From Escherichia virus TH06, in sequence record MT446386.1: a DNA stretch of 64,000 bases. One strand, written 5' to 3'. Of the stretch, positions 37,914 through 48,553 are shown piece after piece. The translations under genes and the position numbers were made by a program. Each line of letters opens with the position of its first letter. The first letter of the stretch is position 1. Under the pieces are notes generated by a model. It saw nothing but the letters and a program-made list of their open reading frames with translations, was not told the DNA's origin and did not search any database.

Positions 37914-37941
37914 TTGACATGATTTTCCTTTATAGTAATAT
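37914..37941 (+). promoter_or_regulatory. sigma70-type promoter with A-tract UP-like element
   Basis: AAAAAAGGGTA TTGACA, 16 nt spacer, TAATAT; spacer resembles that of the 35659 promoter. Confidence 0.5.
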
Positions 37942-41727: not shown

Positions 41728-41806
41728 TAGGAATATAGCCCCTCTTTTAGTACTATGACGCTCTTTCTGTAGCGTCGTGCCCTCTCCCCATTTGAAGATT
41801 CCGCAT

Positions 41807-41829
41807 AGCCGCCTTTGAGCGGCTTTTTG
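41807..41829 (+). terminator. intrinsic terminator
   Basis: AGCCGC-CTTTGA-GCGGCT then TTTTT. Confidence 0.65.
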
Positions 41830-41891
41830 CGTTGCTGTAAGTGCATTTGCGAGTGTATTTATAGCAACGGTCATGTGTTGCTTTCAGGTTT

Positions 41892-41918
41892 GCCCCGGCT
41901 ACGGCTGGGGCTTTTTTA
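41892..41918 (+). terminator. intrinsic terminator
   Basis: GCCCCGGC-TACG-GCTGGGGC then TTTTTT. Confidence 0.6.
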
Positions 41919-41966
41919 TGCCCGTAAAACAGGAGGTATCAAGTTCTGATAACAACGGCCCAGCTA

Positions 41967-42356: not shown

Positions 42357-42555
42357 TCTCTAGTGCCAGATTTAACAAACTAAATTCCTTTATAAACCAA
42401 CCACTTAGTAAATTTATTGAAAAAGATGGTAGTATTCTGGGACTATGGGTAATGCTCTGTATATAGACCCTTTGAAAATTTCTTAGAAAATAAGTTTACT
42501 AAATATAACTTACTTAAATAATATTACTTTTAATCTCTGATAAAGGGTAAATAAT

Positions 42556-42852
42556 ATGACTTTAGAGGTATATAAATTCCTTTTTGTAAGCTGTTTAACT
42601 ATCAGCGTTATAGGGTTTATTGTTCTCAGAAACAAAGCAGCAAGCTGGGAGAGAATGTATAAATCTCTAGTCCGAGTGGATGAGATGTATAATGAGAAAG
42701 TTAAAGTAACACTTAATGATCTTATTATGCAAGTTGAAGACAGAAATAAGCGTCTTCAGAACCTCAACCATGAAGTATTACGACTTGCTCGTGCTAATGA
42801 AGACTTGCGAGTAGCTATTGCTAAGCAGCAGGAGATTAACAGTGAAAGTTAA
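42556..42852 (+). CDS. membrane-anchored coiled-coil protein
   Basis: N-terminal TM helix followed by a heptad-rich segment. Confidence 0.4.
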   Translation: MTLEVYKFLFVSCLTISVIGFIVLRNKAASWERMYKSLVRVDEMYNEKVKVTLNDLIMQVEDRNKRLQNLNHEVLRLARANEDLRVAIAKQQEINSES

Positions 42853-43078
42853 TATTAAATCTGATCGTACAATGCTTCGATTAAATAACATGAAGCCGGG
42901 GGTTCTGTTTGAGCGTAAAGAATCCCTTTACATCAGAACCGACACATTGTACGCAGACAATTATGTCAACTGTGTTGATGTGGTAACTGGAAAGCTCATG
43001 CCTTTTAAACGGGATGAAGTTTGCCAAGTACGCAGTGATCTCCATATAACCAACATAGAGGCTAAAGATGAAGATTAA
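42842..43078 (+). CDS. small paralog-family protein (array 1, member 1)
   Basis: GTG start after AGGAG; motif KPGVLF; family resemblance to the following genes. Confidence 0.4.
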   Translation: MKVNIKSDRTMLRLNNMKPGVLFERKESLYIRTDTLYADNYVNCVDVVTGKLMPFKRDEVCQVRSDLHITNIEAKDED

Positions 43079-43325
43079 TCTTGAAGTAAATGAACCGTCT
43101 TTGTGTGTTGGTGATCTCAAACTTGGGGATGTATTCCAAATCAGGGAAACACGAGCAGATTTCTACATGGTTGTTCAGCTATTTACCTCACAGATTGAAG
43201 AGACCAAGCCTTCTGATGGGGGTTGTGTCGTCCTTAGTCTGACAAATAAGCAAGTCCTTAAACTTAGCTCGAAAAGCAAGGTTGTTCTTCTTCATGATGT
43301 TGTTATTACTAACAAGGGCAAGTAG
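43068..43325 (+). CDS. small paralog-family protein (array 1, member 2)
   Basis: MKINLEV ... LGDVFQI ... FYMVV. Confidence 0.45.
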   Translation: MKINLEVNEPSLCVGDLKLGDVFQIRETRADFYMVVQLFTSQIEETKPSDGGCVVLSLTNKQVLKLSSKSKVVLLHDVVITNKGK

Positions 43326-43544
43326 ATGGAAATTAAAGTAGTTGATTATCCTAAATATGCAAATGCAGAAGATGTTAAAGGTGGTGATGTTTTCTCTTAC
43401 GACAGACGTTTCTGGCTGATGTTAGAAGATAAAACTCCCGATGGTTTATGTAAGGCCGCCAATCTGAACAGCGGTTCTGTTGAAGTCTTCGGTCTATCAA
43501 CCACTGTTATGCCACGCCCTGATCTGTGTTTATCCCAAAAGTAA
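43326..43544 (+). CDS. small paralog-family protein (array 1, member 3)
   Basis: MEIKVVD ... GGDVFSY ... FWLML. Confidence 0.45.
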   Translation: MEIKVVDYPKYANAEDVKGGDVFSYDRRFWLMLEDKTPDGLCKAANLNSGSVEVFGLSTTVMPRPDLCLSQK

Positions 43545-43552
43545 CATCGACT

Positions 43553-43655
43553 TATAGCCCTTGTGTTTATCAGAGGGCTATGTGAGGGTGTTCCTCATTA
43601 ACTTATTAATTCAGGCATATGCCACACCGCTAGGGAGAGCTTGCTCGAACATCCG
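43553..43655 (+). repeat. conserved ~100 bp element, copy 1
   Basis: Shares TATAGCC hairpin with GAGGGCTATGTGAG, GCTAGGGAGAG and CTCGAACATCCG with 49016..49126. Confidence 0.55.
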
Positions 43656-43902
43656 GTGTTAGACTAAAACCTGTTCAATTTCGGTAGACTTTCCACTACG
43701 TAGGGGTACGTATTGGTTTGGGATTCAGGAGATCTCCTAGGGGTAGGAGGTCTTCACCAGTTGGGATAAGAGATAGCTCTAGAACCTGAACTCTTAGGCA
43801 GAGAGGGTCGGCAATGAGTACGCGGTCAGAATTAGCCTCCTGACTAGGGCTATCCCTTATATCAACTGGCAATAATGCCTCCACTAATAAAGAGAGAACG
43901 TT

Positions 43903-44043
43903 ATGAAGAAGTCAACCAAGCGTATGAACCGTCCTGAGCGTATGGATGCAGTAGCAAATGGTGCACTGAAGATCGAGTCTGCCATGCTGCGTCTGATGGG
44001 TAACATCCGTAAGCGTCAAGGTGGTTGGGTTTACAATAACTGA
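43903..44043 (+). CDS. hypothetical small basic protein (46 aa)
   Basis: Hand-translated MKKSTKRMNRPERMDAV...; weak RBS. Confidence 0.25.
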   Translation: MKKSTKRMNRPERMDAVANGALKIESAMLRLMGNIRKRQGGWVYNN

Positions 44044-44209
44044 TTTAATAAAAGGCTGCCTAGAAATAGGTGGCCTTTGTTGTTTTAATTAAGGGTCAAC
44101 TCTTACTTAAACTAACAACGGGTGTATGGTATTGACAGGCATCGGCACGGAACTTGTTACCAACAAGGTTGGCGAATCAAGACCTCTGTGAAGCTCCGAA
44201 GAAATCAAG

Positions 44210-44237
44210 GCAGGTTCGACTCCTGCTCCCCGACCAA
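44210..44237 (+). other. tRNA-like T-arm plus acceptor-3'-like segment (not a complete tRNA)
   Basis: GCAGG-TTCGACT-CCTGC followed by TCCCCGACCAAATC; no matching 5' acceptor strand found. Confidence 0.2.
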
Positions 44238-44256
44238 ATCAGCAAGAGGTGCTTAT

Positions 44257-44610
44257 ATGAGAAGCATGGTTAAAGATTGGGTAACTAAATCAGGTCTTCG
44301 TGCTGTGATTATGCACATGAACGACTCCCACTTTTGTGGATATGTAGAGCTACCAGACAGCTTAAAACATAAAAACTTCACCGGATATAACGGGAATGAA
44401 GAAGTTTGTTATGTAAGTGTTCATGGTGGTGTCACATGGCAAGATACCCTTGAAGAGATGGATGGTTTAGATACAATCGGATTTGATTGTGCCCATGCAG
44501 GTGATAAGACACGGTTCAACCCTAACGGGGTTCCAAGAACAGAAACGTTCTGCATCAACGAATGCGAACAAATGGCTGAACAACTAAGAGATCTCGAATC
44601 AAATGTCTAA
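44257..44610 (+). CDS. hypothetical protein
   Basis: ATG with RBS AGAGGTG; the track's longer form starts in unlikely upstream sequence. Confidence 0.45.
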   Translation: MRSMVKDWVTKSGLRAVIMHMNDSHFCGYVELPDSLKHKNFTGYNGNEEVCYVSVHGGVTWQDTLEEMDGLDTIGFDCAHAGDKTRFNPNGVPRTETFCINECEQMAEQLRDLESNV

Positions 44611-44779
44611 GCAAACAATCAAACATACGCAAGCTGGTTACTCTTATATCAACTCTCCTTGTTGTGGTGCTCGTGTGAATCTGGTTAAGGAAGAGGTTCG
44701 TATCGTTCAGCGTGGCGCTACTGTTGTCCGTTCATGCTGTGTCTGTGGTAATGACATTTTTATCAAAGGTAAAGTATGA
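44603..44779 (+). CDS. small zinc-ribbon-like protein (58 aa)
   Basis: SPCCGARV ... SCCVCGND; below the track cutoff; ATGA overlap with next gene. Confidence 0.35.
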   Translation: MSKQTIKHTQAGYSYINSPCCGARVNLVKEEVRIVQRGATVVRSCCVCGNDIFIKGKV

Positions 44780-45027
44780 AAAACTTCCAAGCTGCACCAA
44801 TCACGAAAGTTATTTCAGTTGATGATGTGATGATGACTGTTCCTCTGAACACTCGTTACATTGCAATTGACAAGATGGGTTATGTATGGGCTTGGAAGAT
44901 TAAGCCTAGCTATAACGCACTGTTCGACGAGTTTGTTTGTACTGGTACGTATAGCCCTACGTTCTTGGGTTTGTTTGGAGAGTTCGAAGGTCAGTATAAA
45001 ATCATCACTCTCCCTGCTTGTGCTTGA
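44776..45027 (+). CDS. hypothetical protein
   Basis: ORF with start/stop overlap. Confidence 0.45.
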   Translation: MKNFQAAPITKVISVDDVMMTVPLNTRYIAIDKMGYVWAWKIKPSYNALFDEFVCTGTYSPTFLGLFGEFEGQYKIITLPACA

Positions 45028-45034
45028 GGTTAGT

Positions 45035-45199
45035 ATGTTCAAGTGGTTTAAACGTCTATTCCATCTGCACGATTGGGTAATTCTCGAGAAGTATACACTA
45101 AAGATCACTGATGATTATGGTGGTACGAAACATAAAGGTTTACGTTATATCATGCAGTGCAAAACATGTGGTTGTATCACCAAGCGGGATATGATCTAA
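45035..45199 (+). CDS. small Cys-containing protein
   Basis: RBS GAGGT; CKTCGC motif; C-terminal part of track ORF 44861..45199. Confidence 0.35.
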   Translation: MFKWFKRLFHLHDWVILEKYTLKITDDYGGTKHKGLRYIMQCKTCGCITKRDMI

Positions 45200-45207
45200 A
45201 TAATTCT

Positions 45208-45283
45208 GCGCTCTTAGCTCAATGGATAGAGCAGTAGCCTTCTAAGCTATTGGTTACAGGTTCGAGTCCTGTAGGGCGCACCA
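45208..45283 (+). tRNA. tRNA-Arg (anticodon TCT)
   Basis: Hand-folded cloverleaf: acceptor GCGCTCT/AGGGCGC with one G-U, D-arm GCTC/GAGC, anticodon stem GTAGC/GCTAT, loop CTTCTAA, T-arm ACAGG-TTCGAGT-CCTGT, encoded CCA. Confidence 0.7.
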
Positions 45284-45377
45284 CATTTAGGGCTAGTATG
45301 GGTGCGGCACCAGAGTTAGTGTATCCCTGTTGAGGCAAGTGCTTTTATAACAGTGGGAATTACTTTCTTAGTGAGCT

Positions 45378-45404
45378 TCTGGTTCGATTCCAGATAGTCC
45401 ACCA
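45378..45404 (+). other. second tRNA-like T-arm plus 3' segment (no canonical cloverleaf)
   Basis: TCTGG-TTCGATT-CCAGA followed by TAGTCCACCAAATC; shares the ACCAAATC tail with 44210..44237. Confidence 0.2.
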
Positions 45405-45423
45405 AATCTAATAGGAGGTAATT

Positions 45424-45723
45424 ATGAGTTGGGGTGGTGTAATATCCTTAATCTGTATCTTCCTTGTCTGTGTGGCCCTTACAGGCTGCGTACAGAGCCG
45501 CCCTGATGGGTGGTGTGCAGTAGCAGTGGATGGTATTTGTGTATCTCGCTGGCATTCAGGAAACAAGATTCCTAGTGGTGAGATTGATATGCGCTACAAC
45601 GGGGCAACCTGCTCTAATGCTAACCCTTCTATCAACGAAGAGAAGTCTACGCCAGACAATGTTGTGATCGATACAGCGTTGTGGTGTGGCGGTTCTGTAA
45701 CAACAACCGGTAAGGAGTGGTAA
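45424..45723 (+). CDS. lipoprotein (possible superinfection-exclusion protein)
   Basis: Signal peptide with lipobox ALTGC; Cys-rich mature part; early-region location. Confidence 0.45.
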   Translation: MSWGGVISLICIFLVCVALTGCVQSRPDGWCAVAVDGICVSRWHSGNKIPSGEIDMRYNGATCSNANPSINEEKSTPDNVVIDTALWCGGSVTTTGKEW

Positions 45724-45724
45724 T

Positions 45725-45886
45725 GTGACTATTGAAGAACTCATTAGAACTCTTGAAAACTTATCTGTTACTTGTGGTCCAGATGCTATCGTCTACATCG
45801 AAGAACCTTCAGGGAATGAATACCCTGTGAAAGAGGTTCTTGAGTACTCAGTAGGAGATCTTTCATCAGTAACCCTAAGACATTGA
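45725..45886 (+). CDS. hypothetical small protein (GTG start)
   Basis: AAGGAG 7 nt upstream of GTG; hand-translated. Confidence 0.25.
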   Translation: MTIEELIRTLENLSVTCGPDAIVYIEEPSGNEYPVKEVLEYSVGDLSSVTLRH

Positions 45887-45887
45887 G

Positions 45888-46142
45888 GTGTATATGACAG
45901 CTCATTATTGGAATACAAAGAAGCTTCTTGAAGAGATGGCTGGGGGTAGTAAGTTCCAGTTAAACTCCATGCTTCGAATGGATGCCCGCTCTTTACGTTT
46001 CCAAGTAAAGATTGGTAACTTCAGTGATGGACTTTATTATACCTTGAAAGAAAGGATTAAGAAGACTCACTTCATCATATATGGACTCAAACCGAGAACA
46101 TATGTTAACTACATGTATTGGGATACATGCTACGATAATTGA
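45888..46142 (+). CDS. hypothetical protein
   Basis: RBS GAGGTG. Confidence 0.45.
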   Translation: MYMTAHYWNTKKLLEEMAGGSKFQLNSMLRMDARSLRFQVKIGNFSDGLYYTLKERIKKTHFIIYGLKPRTYVNYMYWDTCYDN

Positions 46143-46149
46143 GGTTATT

Positions 46150-46371
46150 ATGTTATTTGAAGCTAAGCAAACATTACCAGTAGTTCCTTTGTCTACACTT
46201 CTTAGTGGGAGTGCTTTTAGACATGATAATGGTTTTTGGATTAAGGGCGACCAAGAGGTTGGAGGGTATATTACCTGCATCAACATCTGCAACGGCGTTG
46301 TTGACGGATTTCGTCCAGCCGCTGAAGTCACTCCTCAATCCAACGCAAAGGTTGTAGGTTTAGTTTACTAA
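46150..46371 (+). CDS. hypothetical protein
   Basis: In-frame ATG with RBS GAGG inside track ORF 46081..46371. Confidence 0.4.
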   Translation: MLFEAKQTLPVVPLSTLLSGSAFRHDNGFWIKGDQEVGGYITCINICNGVVDGFRPAAEVTPQSNAKVVGLVY

Positions 46372-46380
46372 GGAGCCTGT

Positions 46381-46554
46381 ATGAGTTGTTTTGGTGGCGG
46401 TGAAGTAGATGACGATGATGACATGGAATCCAACGGTACATGCCCTGATTGTGGGTGTGAGACATTTGATGGGGTGTCAGTATATCCTGCCTGTAGTTAC
46501 TCACCAGTGATCTGTAAAACATGTGGAGATCAGCCTTGTGATCAATCTTGTTAA
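46381..46554 (+). CDS. small Cys-rich acidic protein (57 aa)
   Basis: Strong RBS AAGGAG; CPDCGC ... CKTCGDQPC. Confidence 0.4.
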   Translation: MSCFGGGEVDDDDDMESNGTCPDCGCETFDGVSVYPACSYSPVICKTCGDQPCDQSC

Positions 46555-46563
46555 GAGAATCTT

Positions 46564-46695
46564 ATGACTGAAGAATTTTTAGAGTGGTTTAGTGACACCT
46601 TCAAAGAATACCTATTCACTCCAGAAAGTTTAGAAGAGTTGAAAACCTACACTTGGTTGGCTTGGAGAGATAGCCGACGAAAAATGAATAAGTAA
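46564..46695 (+). CDS. hypothetical small protein (43 aa)
   Basis: Hand-translated. Confidence 0.25.
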   Translation: MTEEFLEWFSDTFKEYLFTPESLEELKTYTWLAWRDSRRKMNK

Positions 46696-46706
46696 GAGAC
46701 GATTAA

Positions 46707-46964
46707 ATGGGTTTACTTGATATTTTTATCTCAGTTTACTTTATTGGAGTATTCCTCTCTGTTTTAGTGCTGAAACTGCTATACAAGAAAGGTCTACTAA
46801 AAGGGGTCATTACAACAGAGTCTACCAGCTCTGAACCTGATGAGATGATGGTTGTGCTCTTAATTGTGTTGTGGCCTATCTCAATACTGGCAGGAGTTTT
46901 TTATCCAATAGGTTTGCTTCTGTTTAAAGCATATGACGCAGTTATGCATTTTATCTTTAAGTAA
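46707..46964 (+). CDS. small membrane protein
   Basis: Two hydrophobic helices. Confidence 0.45.
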   Translation: MGLLDIFISVYFIGVFLSVLVLKLLYKKGLLKGVITTESTSSEPDEMMVVLLIVLWPISILAGVFYPIGLLLFKAYDAVMHFIFK

Positions 46965-47175
46965 TATCGTGAAGGATTCTTACGAGAGTCCTTTGAGATA
47001 GGACTTCAGATCTCCTATCAAACTAACATTCATGTAACTAGCCCATAAGGGCGTTACCCTTTAATAACCCAGCCCACTAAGGGGGCGGGAGTTTAGTGCT
47101 GGATTGGCTTTACGCTTATTCCTACAAAGGCAACCGATTGTTAGATCTTACATGCAATATTAACTAATAGGATAA

Positions 47176-47206
47176 GGGAGGATTCGTCCCCTCCCCCTAT
47201 TTTATT
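47176..47206 (+). terminator. intrinsic terminator (weaker U-tract)
   Basis: GGGAGG-ATTCGTC-CCTCCC then CCTATTTTATT. Confidence 0.45.
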
Positions 47207-47254
47207 GAATCTTTATCTAAGCAAGTCTTACATAAATATTTAATTGGAGGATGT

Positions 47255-47566
47255 ATGAAAGCTCGAAGAACTATATGGACTCCGATGCAGATTGAAAATC
47301 TTCGGAGACTAATCAAAGAGTACTCGGTTCAAGAAGTTGCTCAGATTATGAATGTAACGGAGAATGCAGTTAACACAGCTTGTACTAAATTCGGAATATC
47401 AAGAGCTTCAGTCCGAGTTAAATGGTCTGAAGAAGAAGATCAGTTCCTTATCCGTAATGCTGGGTTCATGCCTATTCAGAGAATGGCTGACATGCTCGGT
47501 AGAAGTTATGCTGCTGTACAGAACAGGGCATGTATGCACCTTAATATTAGCCTCAAACTTAAATAG
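47255..47566 (+). CDS. putative DNA-binding protein with two HTH-like repeats
   Basis: Internal repeat W(T/S)..Q...L...I...... both ending in A(V/A)(N/Q)(T/N)(A/R)A. Confidence 0.4.
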   Translation: MKARRTIWTPMQIENLRRLIKEYSVQEVAQIMNVTENAVNTACTKFGISRASVRVKWSEEEDQFLIRNAGFMPIQRMADMLGRSYAAVQNRACMHLNISLKLK

Positions 47567-47574
47567 GAATCAAT

Positions 47575-47823
47575 ATGAAGATTACTCACAAGAAAGAAGA
47601 AGTGTCCACGGTTGATATCAACTCTCTTCCTAGTGGAGCAGTATTTAAATTCCCTGAGAGTTCTACTCTCTATGTCAAAGGGTCTGTGTCTGAAAGTCCT
47701 AATGTAACCGTTAACTCCGATCGAGCAATCACTCTTCGTCTATCTGATGGTAACGTAACAGCCCCTTCTATCTGGTGCCGAGTTGTCCCTGTATCGGCAG
47801 AACTTTTGGTGGATAATACATAA
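47575..47823 (+). CDS. small paralog-family protein (array 2, member 1)
   Basis: MKITHKK ... SGAVFKF ... LYVKG. Confidence 0.45.
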   Translation: MKITHKKEEVSTVDINSLPSGAVFKFPESSTLYVKGSVSESPNVTVNSDRAITLRLSDGNVTAPSIWCRVVPVSAELLVDNT

Positions 47824-48068
47824 TGAAAATCATCCCAAAGAAAAAGGATAATACGGTACGATTGGAAACAATCATTCCCGGAAACCCTTTCGTGGTTCAG
47901 AACGGAAGTGCCTCTCCTCAGTATTACATGAGGGTTGAAAATGCTTCTGGTAACATTCGTATAGCCAGTGGTTGGGTTCCTGTGGTAAACCTTTCCACAG
48001 GTGTGTTATCTGTTAAAGGTCTTGATGATCAGGTAGAAATGATTCGTATGTCAGTGGTTCAGGAGTAG
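47823..48068 (+). CDS. small paralog-family protein (array 2, member 2)
   Basis: MKIIPKK ... PGNPFVV ... YYMRV. Confidence 0.45.
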   Translation: MKIIPKKKDNTVRLETIIPGNPFVVQNGSASPQYYMRVENASGNIRIASGWVPVVNLSTGVLSVKGLDDQVEMIRMSVVQE

Positions 48069-48322
48069 TGCATATGAGCATTATTAACATTAAAGTTAAA
48101 GACAAAGAGGAAAAAATCCTCCGCGTCAGAGATCTAAATATGTCAGATGTGTTCACTCTCCAAGAGTGCCAAAATCAAAAGGTTTATATGATGACAGCTA
48201 AAAGCAGGGGTTGTCAACCTGCTGGAGCTGTTAACCTAGGCACTGGAGAACTACGTGTCATCTCTGGTGATATGGTTGTTGGTGAGAAGTTTATTAAGGC
48301 TGAAATCATCTTAACTTCGTAG
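48068..48322 (+). CDS. small paralog-family protein (array 2, member 3)
   Basis: MSDVFTLQ ... VYMMT. Confidence 0.45.
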   Translation: MHMSIINIKVKDKEEKILRVRDLNMSDVFTLQECQNQKVYMMTAKSRGCQPAGAVNLGTGELRVISGDMVVGEKFIKAEIILTS

Positions 48323-48330
48323 GAAAACAA

Positions 48331-48447
48331 ATGAGACGTAAAGCATATTCTTATGACGATATGATTAACCAGAAAGGCTTCGGTCAACGACAGCCTGACG
48401 GTTCAATTATCTGGTTCGTAAACGGACAGAAAAAGGTAGCTAAATAG
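48331..48447 (+). CDS. hypothetical small protein (38 aa)
   Basis: Hand-translated; weak support. Confidence 0.2.
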   Translation: MRRKAYSYDDMINQKGFGQRQPDGSIIWFVNGQKKVAK

Positions 48448-48553
48448 GCTCTCTTCTCTCCTCCTTTTAGTACTATGACGCCTCTCTGTGGGCGGCCCAA
48501 TTTGCGTAGGGAATTCCCTCTACGCAGCCATAACTTTTTAAGGAATTTCCCCT

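Follow-up and report, generated by a model that had tools for sequence, protein, structure and literature searches.

Diverged early genes of Escherichia virus TH06 encode predicted SH3-like small barrels of a large protein family expanded in kuraviruses

Kuraviruses (phiEco32-like coliphages, Gordonclarkvirinae) are used in phage therapy work. The host sigma70 RNA polymerase transcribes one side of their genomes as early genes, which comprise coding sequences (CDS) 69-125 in SU10, gp82-122 in YF01 and the early cluster of phiEco32 (PMC4281155, PMC9965538, PMC8948821). The Gordonclarkvirinae are reported to resist restriction-modification and all tested defence systems except Fun/Z, by no known mechanism (PMC11990801), and this unexplained resistance to host immunity makes the early genes worth dissecting. 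Two small genes of other virulent podoviruses are relevant here: gp7 of LUZ24, an early gene conserved in 71 Bruynoghevirus records, and gp21 of N4, which sits in the left part of the genome among non-structural genes and is conserved in 16 N4-type records. We analyzed a window of 64,000 nucleotides (nt) from Escherichia virus TH06 (record MT446386.1; "the window" denotes this whole stretch) and describe seven small genes in its early region, A1-A3 and B1-B3 in two arrays and C1 between them (Table 1), whose products appear to be diverged copies of one small beta-barrel domain that is shared with LUZ24 gp7 and N4 gp21.

The first-pass annotation, made from the sequence alone, had described six small open reading frames (ORFs) in two three-gene arrays, with a recognizable common scaffold and low pairwise identity. 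All six are present and real, and the motifs quoted for them (GDVFQI, GDVFSY, GAVFKF, GNPFVV, SDVFTL and GVLF, then FYMVV, FWLML and others) were all found in the sequences. However, the count was too low, as a seventh paralog, C1, stands alone between the arrays, inside a longer ORF (46081-46371). Pairwise identity among the paralogs is indeed low (14-26%), and pairwise phmmer among the seven proteins gave no significant match except C1-A3 (E=0.001). Narrow hidden Markov models (HMMs) built from orthologs only also rarely cross-matched among the paralogs.

The similarity that fails by pairwise phmmer passes by profile methods. For each test protein, all sequences at least 30% identical to it were removed from the 212-sequence family alignment, and the resulting leave-one-group-out HMMs regained all seven held-out paralogs with E-values of 6.6e-10 to 7.6e-15 (A1 5.7e-14, A2 5.5e-11, A3 3.5e-13, C1 1.1e-13, B1 6.6e-10, B2 7.6e-15, B3 6e-12), whereas the other 463 ORFs of the window had a best E-value of 0.5 or worse. 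In a search of 38,880 PHROG families, A1 matched the families of A3 (2e-8) and B1 (4e-6); its cross-matches were to phrog_6570, phrog_7832 and phrog_7431, and B3 cross-matched phrog_7431, the B2 family, at 1.5e-4. Comparison of ortholog-group profiles with hhalign gave five pairs at 6e-6 to 3e-4 and the other 16 pairs at 0.002-0.06, mostly in register. These three approaches agree and indicate that the seven genes are true paralogs on one scaffold. The pairwise result would also fit a chance resemblance among short, unrelated or non-coding ORFs, but the chance of this is next to nothing: it is refuted by the leave-one-out E-values set against those of all other ORFs and by the selection on all seven genes described below, where omega is far under 1, and the PHROG cross-matches and a confident structural model of A3 also speak against it.

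That model, built with AlphaFold2 from an 82-sequence family alignment, shows a five-strand small barrel with less confident termini (predicted local distance difference test score, pLDDT, 88.9; predicted template-modelling score, pTM, 0.75), the strands being E22-25, 28-36, 42-46, 52-55 and 60-63. It has the five-stranded, highly bent antiparallel barrel of ~60-70 residues that defines the SH3-like/Tudor/KOW fold class, and the domain is predicted to be a five-stranded SH3/Tudor/KOW-like small beta-barrel of 72-85 amino acids (aa). In BFVD, whose models were built independently, the A3 model matched orthologs of the B, A2 and C1 types at E-values of 1e-5 to 5e-3, including the model of the B2 ortholog of phage LAMP. 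All BFVD matches were uncharacterized phage proteins, namely Kuravirus C1, A2 and B-type orthologs (NJ01, Paul, 172-1, LAMP, ECBP2), N4 gp21, and proteins of Klebsiella, Erwinia, Proteus, Pseudomonas, Yersinia, Serratia and Vibrio phages. An AlphaFold2 model of B1 from a shallow alignment (21 orthologs, 78-100% identical) reached a pLDDT of 42.

The anatomy of the domain was examined by aligning the 13 Kuravirus ortholog types, N4 gp21, LUZ24 gp7 and one Vibrio-phage member to the family HMM with hmmalign. The fixed scaffold consists of L..L..G.vF, aromatic-Y-M-x-T, V-N-L-x-T-G and V.pV.A.L.I. These conserved residues probably build the hydrophobic core and tight turns, because of their places on the strands and turns of the model. 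Insertions concentrate at two sites, with 0-7 residues following beta1 and 0-9 residues following beta2; both vary freely in length and sequence, and within-ortholog variability is 0.65-0.75 in loops versus 0.32-0.49 in strands. The seven window copies have isoelectric points (pI) of 4.9-9.2; the family median is 5.8, with 21% of the family above pI 8. The proteins contain no transmembrane-like hydrophobic stretches and are of a non-enzymatic size. Judged by their pI, the paralogs appear to be neither DNA mimics nor obvious nucleic-acid binders.

The family is widespread. A profile search of 1.84 billion representative proteins gave 1,374 clusters (50% identity) at E<=1e-3. The best 150 of these 1,374 representatives were nearly all single-domain proteins of 67-87 aa with an MKI start, but included ~14 two-domain fusions and one four-domain protein. 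By tblastn, the family consensus matched 406 phage records, among them 289 from Vibrio, 88 from Escherichia and 11 from Pseudomonas phages, and the family HMM identified N4 gp21 (74 aa, 54 bits) and LUZ24 gp7 (77 aa, 38 bits) as members, with a fold match by prediction. A consensus-sequence scan of 185,579 genomes gave no match. Pfam returned only noise at E up to 1 for the seven proteins, NCBIfam returned none, and PADLOC, which models defence proteins, showed no match to the family. We found no literature linking the family to known anti-defence proteins. All 102 homologs from the wide-alignment search lacked a precomputed Pfam domain and were unnamed or "hypothetical". Sequence-profile matches in the PDB (rotavirus VP8*, pyranose oxidase; E 0.1-1) were noise, and the giant proteins among the profile matches (P0136, P0174, P0217, P0225) had weak, mutually inconsistent Pfam matches or were too long for a scan, and were set aside as uninformative or possibly repetitive artefacts.

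Table 1 Paralogous barrel genes in the TH06 window and their orthologs
Gene	Coordinates	Strand	Length (aa)	phiEco32 ortholog	PHROG match (E-value)	Features
A1	42842..43078	+	78	gp115	phrog_16423 (4e-49)	GTG start, AGGAG Shine-Dalgarno
A2	43068..43325	+	85	gp114	phrog_9955 (1e-36)	long beta2-beta3 loop insertion
A3	43326..43544	+	72	gp113	phrog_6570 (2e-32)	
C1	46150..46371	+	73	gp104	phrog_6570 (5e-24)	GAGG Shine-Dalgarno, ATG 46150
B1	47575..47823	+	82	gp97	phrog_7832 (3e-27)	
B2	47823..48068	+	81	gp96	phrog_7431 (2e-31)	
B3	48074..48322	+	82	gp95	phrog_12612 (6e-42)	

Genes within the arrays are tightly packed. A1 and A2 overlap by 11 nt, A2 and A3 abut, and the stop of B1 and the start of B2 share 1 nt, which is consistent with translational coupling. 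The true start of B3 is likely to be ATG 48074 rather than the GTG at 48068 that opens the ORF, because an AGGAG lies at -12 and the ortholog annotations agree. Directly upstream of B1 lies a gene for a helix-turn-helix regulator (47255-47566). A2 and A3 lie in one reading frame, separated by a single TAG, the stop of A2 (43323-43328); the stop may conceivably be read through, or the pair may stem from a recent split or fusion, and two-domain fusions of the family exist elsewhere.

By megablast, positions 42500-48500 matched 145 phage records, headed by Kuravirus coliphages. The closest relative was Kuravirus EC.W14-3 (93.5% identity, 87% coverage), followed by SkaterBoy Bas90, SU10, NJ01 and others, and the region is syntenic with phiEco32 gp95-gp116. 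By these matches, we assign the TH06 window to a Kuravirus (phiEco32-like) coliphage genome. The early class was assigned because of the synteny with phiEco32 gp95-98, gp104 and gp113-115 together with the published class assignments, so that early expression of the paralogs is predicted by homology to the phiEco32 transcription map. The early-region location given in the first-pass annotation agrees with the early classes published for phiEco32, SU10 and YF01. Near-consensus sigma70 promoters occur at 37914, 38120 and 38608, on the same strand and upstream of the arrays.

Orthologs were surveyed with the family HMM in the syntenic region of nine other kuraviruses, giving ten genomes with TH06. 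Each genome carries 7-10 copies, and 13 ortholog types were found in all. All ten genomes have A1, A2, C1, B2 and B3, whereas eight have A3 and seven have B1. Each of the six further types occurs in one to four genomes; they comprise two alternatives 5' of A1, single types between A2 and A3 and in front of B1, and the types of phiEco32 gp98 and of gp109. TH06 has the minimum set of seven copies, with arrays shorter than in its relatives (Bas90 has 5+1+4). Several extra array members, for example in Bas90, were absent from HMM training and were still detected at the expected array positions, which therefore provides independent support for a real family. Outside Kuravirus there is usually one copy: N4 and the metagenomic contig L002 have a single one, and for LUZ24 and Vibrio phage 1.101.O there is one clear copy with a weak second match. 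Arrays of 3-5 are a speciality of Kuravirus.

Substitution patterns were compared among orthologs. The median omega (Nei-Gojobori ratio of nonsynonymous to synonymous substitutions, dN/dS) was 0.08 for A1, 0.22 for A2, 0.10 for A3, 0.14 for C1, 0.10 for B1, 0.11 for B2 and 0.24 for B3, which clearly points to purifying selection on all seven genes, and therefore the ORFs encode proteins. Good ribosome-binding sites likewise support their coding status. Orthologs are 54-100% identical across kuraviruses, and close orthologs 83-100%. With these identities and omega values, the earlier description of the genes as rapidly diverging does not hold. The duplications appear to be old, because the same domain family occurs in N4, LUZ24, Vibrio phages and >1,300 metagenomic clusters, and the low identity of the paralogs therefore reflects age, not speed.

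Some orthologs fall into deep allelic classes with saturated synonymous divergence (A2, ~55-58% versus 93-99% identity; C1, ~58% versus 100%), and B3 has classes at 54-60, 83-85 and 100% identity. The TH06 allele of C1 is identical to that of SR02 and ~58% identical to those of the other eight kuraviruses, and A2 is split in a similar way. The splits in C1 and A2 indicate recombination between deep lineages inside the early region. Non-family neighbours (a 46 aa ORF, a lipoprotein gene and a 54 aa ORF) are equally mosaic, and the whole early region recombines between lineages. Since the neighbours are equally mosaic, we do not claim diversifying selection specific to the family.

The only cellular homologs found in the profile search of representative proteins were SprT-like proteins. 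The top representative match was an SprT-like protein of Tenacibaculum in which the domain is repeated five times at the C-terminus, and related Bacteroidota SprT-like proteins, encoded on chromosomal contigs of up to 4.8 Mb, have 2-4 repeats. A protein from a Tenacibaculum metagenome-assembled genome (MFV0249145.1) and an Aureibacter tunicatorum "SprT" protein belong to the same family, with per-repeat E-values down to 1e-9. The SprT-linked repeats are strongly basic (median pI 9.7). A K(R/K)RTRY motif occupies their beta2-beta3 loop, a position where phage members have a variable loop. This difference points to the loop as a functional site, and it suggests that the phage copies may have moved away from any ancestral nucleic-acid binding. 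It should be noted that in the SprT-like proteins P0121 and P0272-P0282 (Bacteroidota) the repeat domain is uncovered by Pfam and is apparently undescribed.

What the barrels do may be approached from these properties. Because the proteins are small, have no transmembrane-like stretches, do not mimic DNA and are not obviously basic, they are most likely stoichiometric binders with loop-set specificity. Each copy would serve as a compact binding module without enzymatic activity, coupled in translation to its neighbours, that early in infection binds and neutralizes or retunes a different host or defence macromolecule, its specificity being set by the variable beta1-beta2 and beta2-beta3 loops. 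The set would then represent a loop-diversified binder scaffold rather than a collection of growth-arresting toxins. We put the probability that the copies are non-enzymatic, loop-diversified binders against host or defence targets at roughly 0.45. We also tentatively favour anti-defence or a subtle modulation of the host over toxic shut-off, at slightly less than even odds. When 13 early proteins of LUZ24 including Gp7 (YP_001671880, 77 aa) were expressed in P. aeruginosa, growth was inhibited only by gp4, gp6, gp9 and gp11 (PMC4635203, Wagemans et al.). That gp7 is non-inhibitory argues against a classic toxic shut-off, and anti-defence or subtle modulation remains plausible; the presence and absence of the six rarer types point the same way. 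The defence resistance of the Gordonclarkvirinae gives circumstantial support.

Several points weigh against the proposal of loop-diversified binders. The non-toxicity datum comes from one distant member in another host, and SU10 proteomics on amplified, concentrated phage did not detect the paralogs. Given the equal mosaicism of non-family early genes, the diversity pattern is not specific to the barrel family, and the faster change of loops than of strands is weak evidence, as it is expected in any protein. In addition, the five universal types look like housekeeping early functions more than arms-race genes, and the basic SprT-linked repeats hint at an ancestral nucleic-acid-binding role.

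Other functions were weighed on the same evidence. The barrels could be classic host-takeover inhibitors, each shutting down an essential host machine (RNA polymerase, ribosome or replisome) in the manner of T7 Gp2 or phiEco32 gp79, the latter being a known RNA-polymerase factor of 82 aa, which displaces sigma70 and switches on the phage sigma. They share their early-region location with gp79, whose TH06 ortholog (58234-58482, + strand) is identical in sequence to the phiEco32 protein. However, gp79 itself was ruled out as a family member, since it had no match to the family HMM and looks unrelated and helical by sequence. Furthermore, fold scores are at the level of any small barrel and there is no Pfam match to any family, LUZ24 gp7 does not inhibit growth, six of the 13 types are dispensable in close relatives, and 7-10 copies exceed the few essential targets normally hit, so that this explanation is decidedly unlikely. 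We consider it just as improbable that the barrels act on nucleic acids, as RNA or DNA chaperones or regulators on phage transcripts or the phage genome (DNA coating or protection, translation tuning). Binding of RNA or DNA is common among SH3-like, KOW and Tudor barrels, the same domain forms 2-5 basic tandem repeats behind the SprT-like metalloprotease domain of Bacteroidota, and a DNA-protecting role would suit the restriction resistance of kuraviruses, which have no known DNA modification. The stand-alone phage members, however, are neutral to acidic, lack the basic loop motif in the alignment, and show no evident conserved basic patch.

A third explanation, that neighbouring paralogs are subunits of one hetero-oligomeric assembly and not independent effectors, draws on the overlapping or abutting start and stop codons within the arrays, on the single reading frame of A2 and A3 across one TAG, and on the natural two-domain and four-domain fusions among the best 150 representatives. 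Array make-up nevertheless varies among close relatives, with A3 absent from two of the ten genomes, B1 absent from three, and extra members coming and going, which is hard to reconcile with a fixed complex; the phages with a single copy, or one clear copy and a weak second match, also count against an assembly, and we regard it as very unlikely.

If the proposal of loop-diversified binders is true, one small, easily expressed fold would open 7-13 different E. coli host or defence targets, and the orphan genes N4 gp21 and LUZ24 gp7 would gain a role. A bolder version is that the 7-10 kuravirus copies form a multi-target counter-defence arsenal on a general-purpose, loop-diversified scaffold of a superfamily of >1,300 clusters. 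Such an arsenal would explain the resistance to restriction-modification and other defences in phages with no known DNA modification, but we consider it rather unlikely.

Several features of the surrounding region are recorded here in their own right. Directly 3' of array A lies a gene-free stretch of 361 nt (43545-43905, + strand) that carries no annotation in any relative. It aligns from end to end in eight kuraviruses at 92.5-99.7% identity, with NJ01 aligning partly, is more conserved than the synonymous sites of the flanking genes, and is present even in genomes without A3. Its RNA fold has a z-score of -2.9, and all 106 pairs of the consensus fold are kept, with three compensatory double changes. 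No Rfam match was found for this stretch, which may be a structured non-coding RNA or a regulatory leader. Immediately 5' of array A, a 98 aa ORF (42556-42852, +) is annotated "DNA helicase" in several relatives; by eye it has a hydrophobic N-terminal segment followed by a coiled coil, and the label looks spurious. A tRNA-Arg gene (anticodon TCT; 45208-45283, +) occupies a central place in the early region, in the interval separating the arrays, and beside it HNH homing-endonuclease genes are inserted in the relatives YF01 and Paul, but not in TH06.

Further upstream, a 240-nt gap (41728-41966) between the gp120 and gp117 orthologs replaces ~1 kb that in phiEco32 and Bas90 carries gp119 ("tail protein") and gp118. 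The gap contains two terminator-like hairpins (41807-41824 and 41892-41911) and fits the small-genome (~69 kb) Kuravirus clade of the closest relative EC.W14-3. Downstream of array B, a cluster of amidoligase, COOH-NH2 ligase, glutamine amidotransferase and ATP-grasp genes (49767-58227, +) corresponds to phiEco32 gp80-gp88 by size and synteny. The early region of LUZ24 also has this gene cluster (gp14-gp21) in addition to the barrel member gp7, and therefore the two phage groups share more than one early-region component.

The barrel family can be compared with known systems at several levels. In PHROGs, every paralog of the window belongs over its full length to one of the families 6570, 7832, 7431, 16423, 9955, 12612 and 8365, all of "unknown function"; distant relatives match five or six of the seven at once, yet the database keeps them separate and unannotated, and neither the unity of the domain nor the arrays is recorded there. 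Uniting the seven PHROGs and >1,300 clusters under a single domain clears a set of "hypothetical proteins" from phage annotation, and it links the phage proteins to a C-terminal repeat of SprT-like proteases of Bacteroidota that has so far gone undescribed. Those repeats are fused to a metalloprotease, tandem in one polypeptide and chromosomal, whereas the phage members stand alone. N4 gp21 and LUZ24 gp7 are single-copy, in contrast to the Kuravirus arrays of 3-5.

Known SH3-like barrels (EF-P/eIF5A domain I KOW, the uL2 C-terminal domain, Tudor, the CarD/TRCF RNA-polymerase-interacting domain and the UvrD/PcrA C-terminal Tudor) show no sequence-profile relation to the family, at 5-20% identity, and structural scores against them are at the level of any small barrel. 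EF-P is typified by a lysine-bearing PGKG loop, in which the beta3-beta4 hairpin ends in a conserved lysine or arginine that is modified. A relation to EF-P/eIF5A domain I (Foldseek E 4e-3) was rejected, as the PGKG-type loop is absent in all seven sequences and the equivalent hairpin is N-L-x-T/S-G.

The Kuravirus papers examined, which do not include the phiEco32 genome paper (PMC2587145), make no mention of paralogy or duplication of these genes. Genes of multi-gene early "ORFan" modules are generally thought to be host-targeting. Such modules (T7 class I, the SPO1 host-takeover module, LUZ24 gp1-gp13, anti-CRISPR and anti-defence loci) are likewise small, early, co-transcribed and variably present. 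However, they consist mostly of unrelated proteins, whereas each kuravirus genome carries one fold 7-10 times. While the fold and small early proteins as such are already familiar, the genes described here represent a new, large sequence family of SH3-like barrels that is expanded in kuraviruses.

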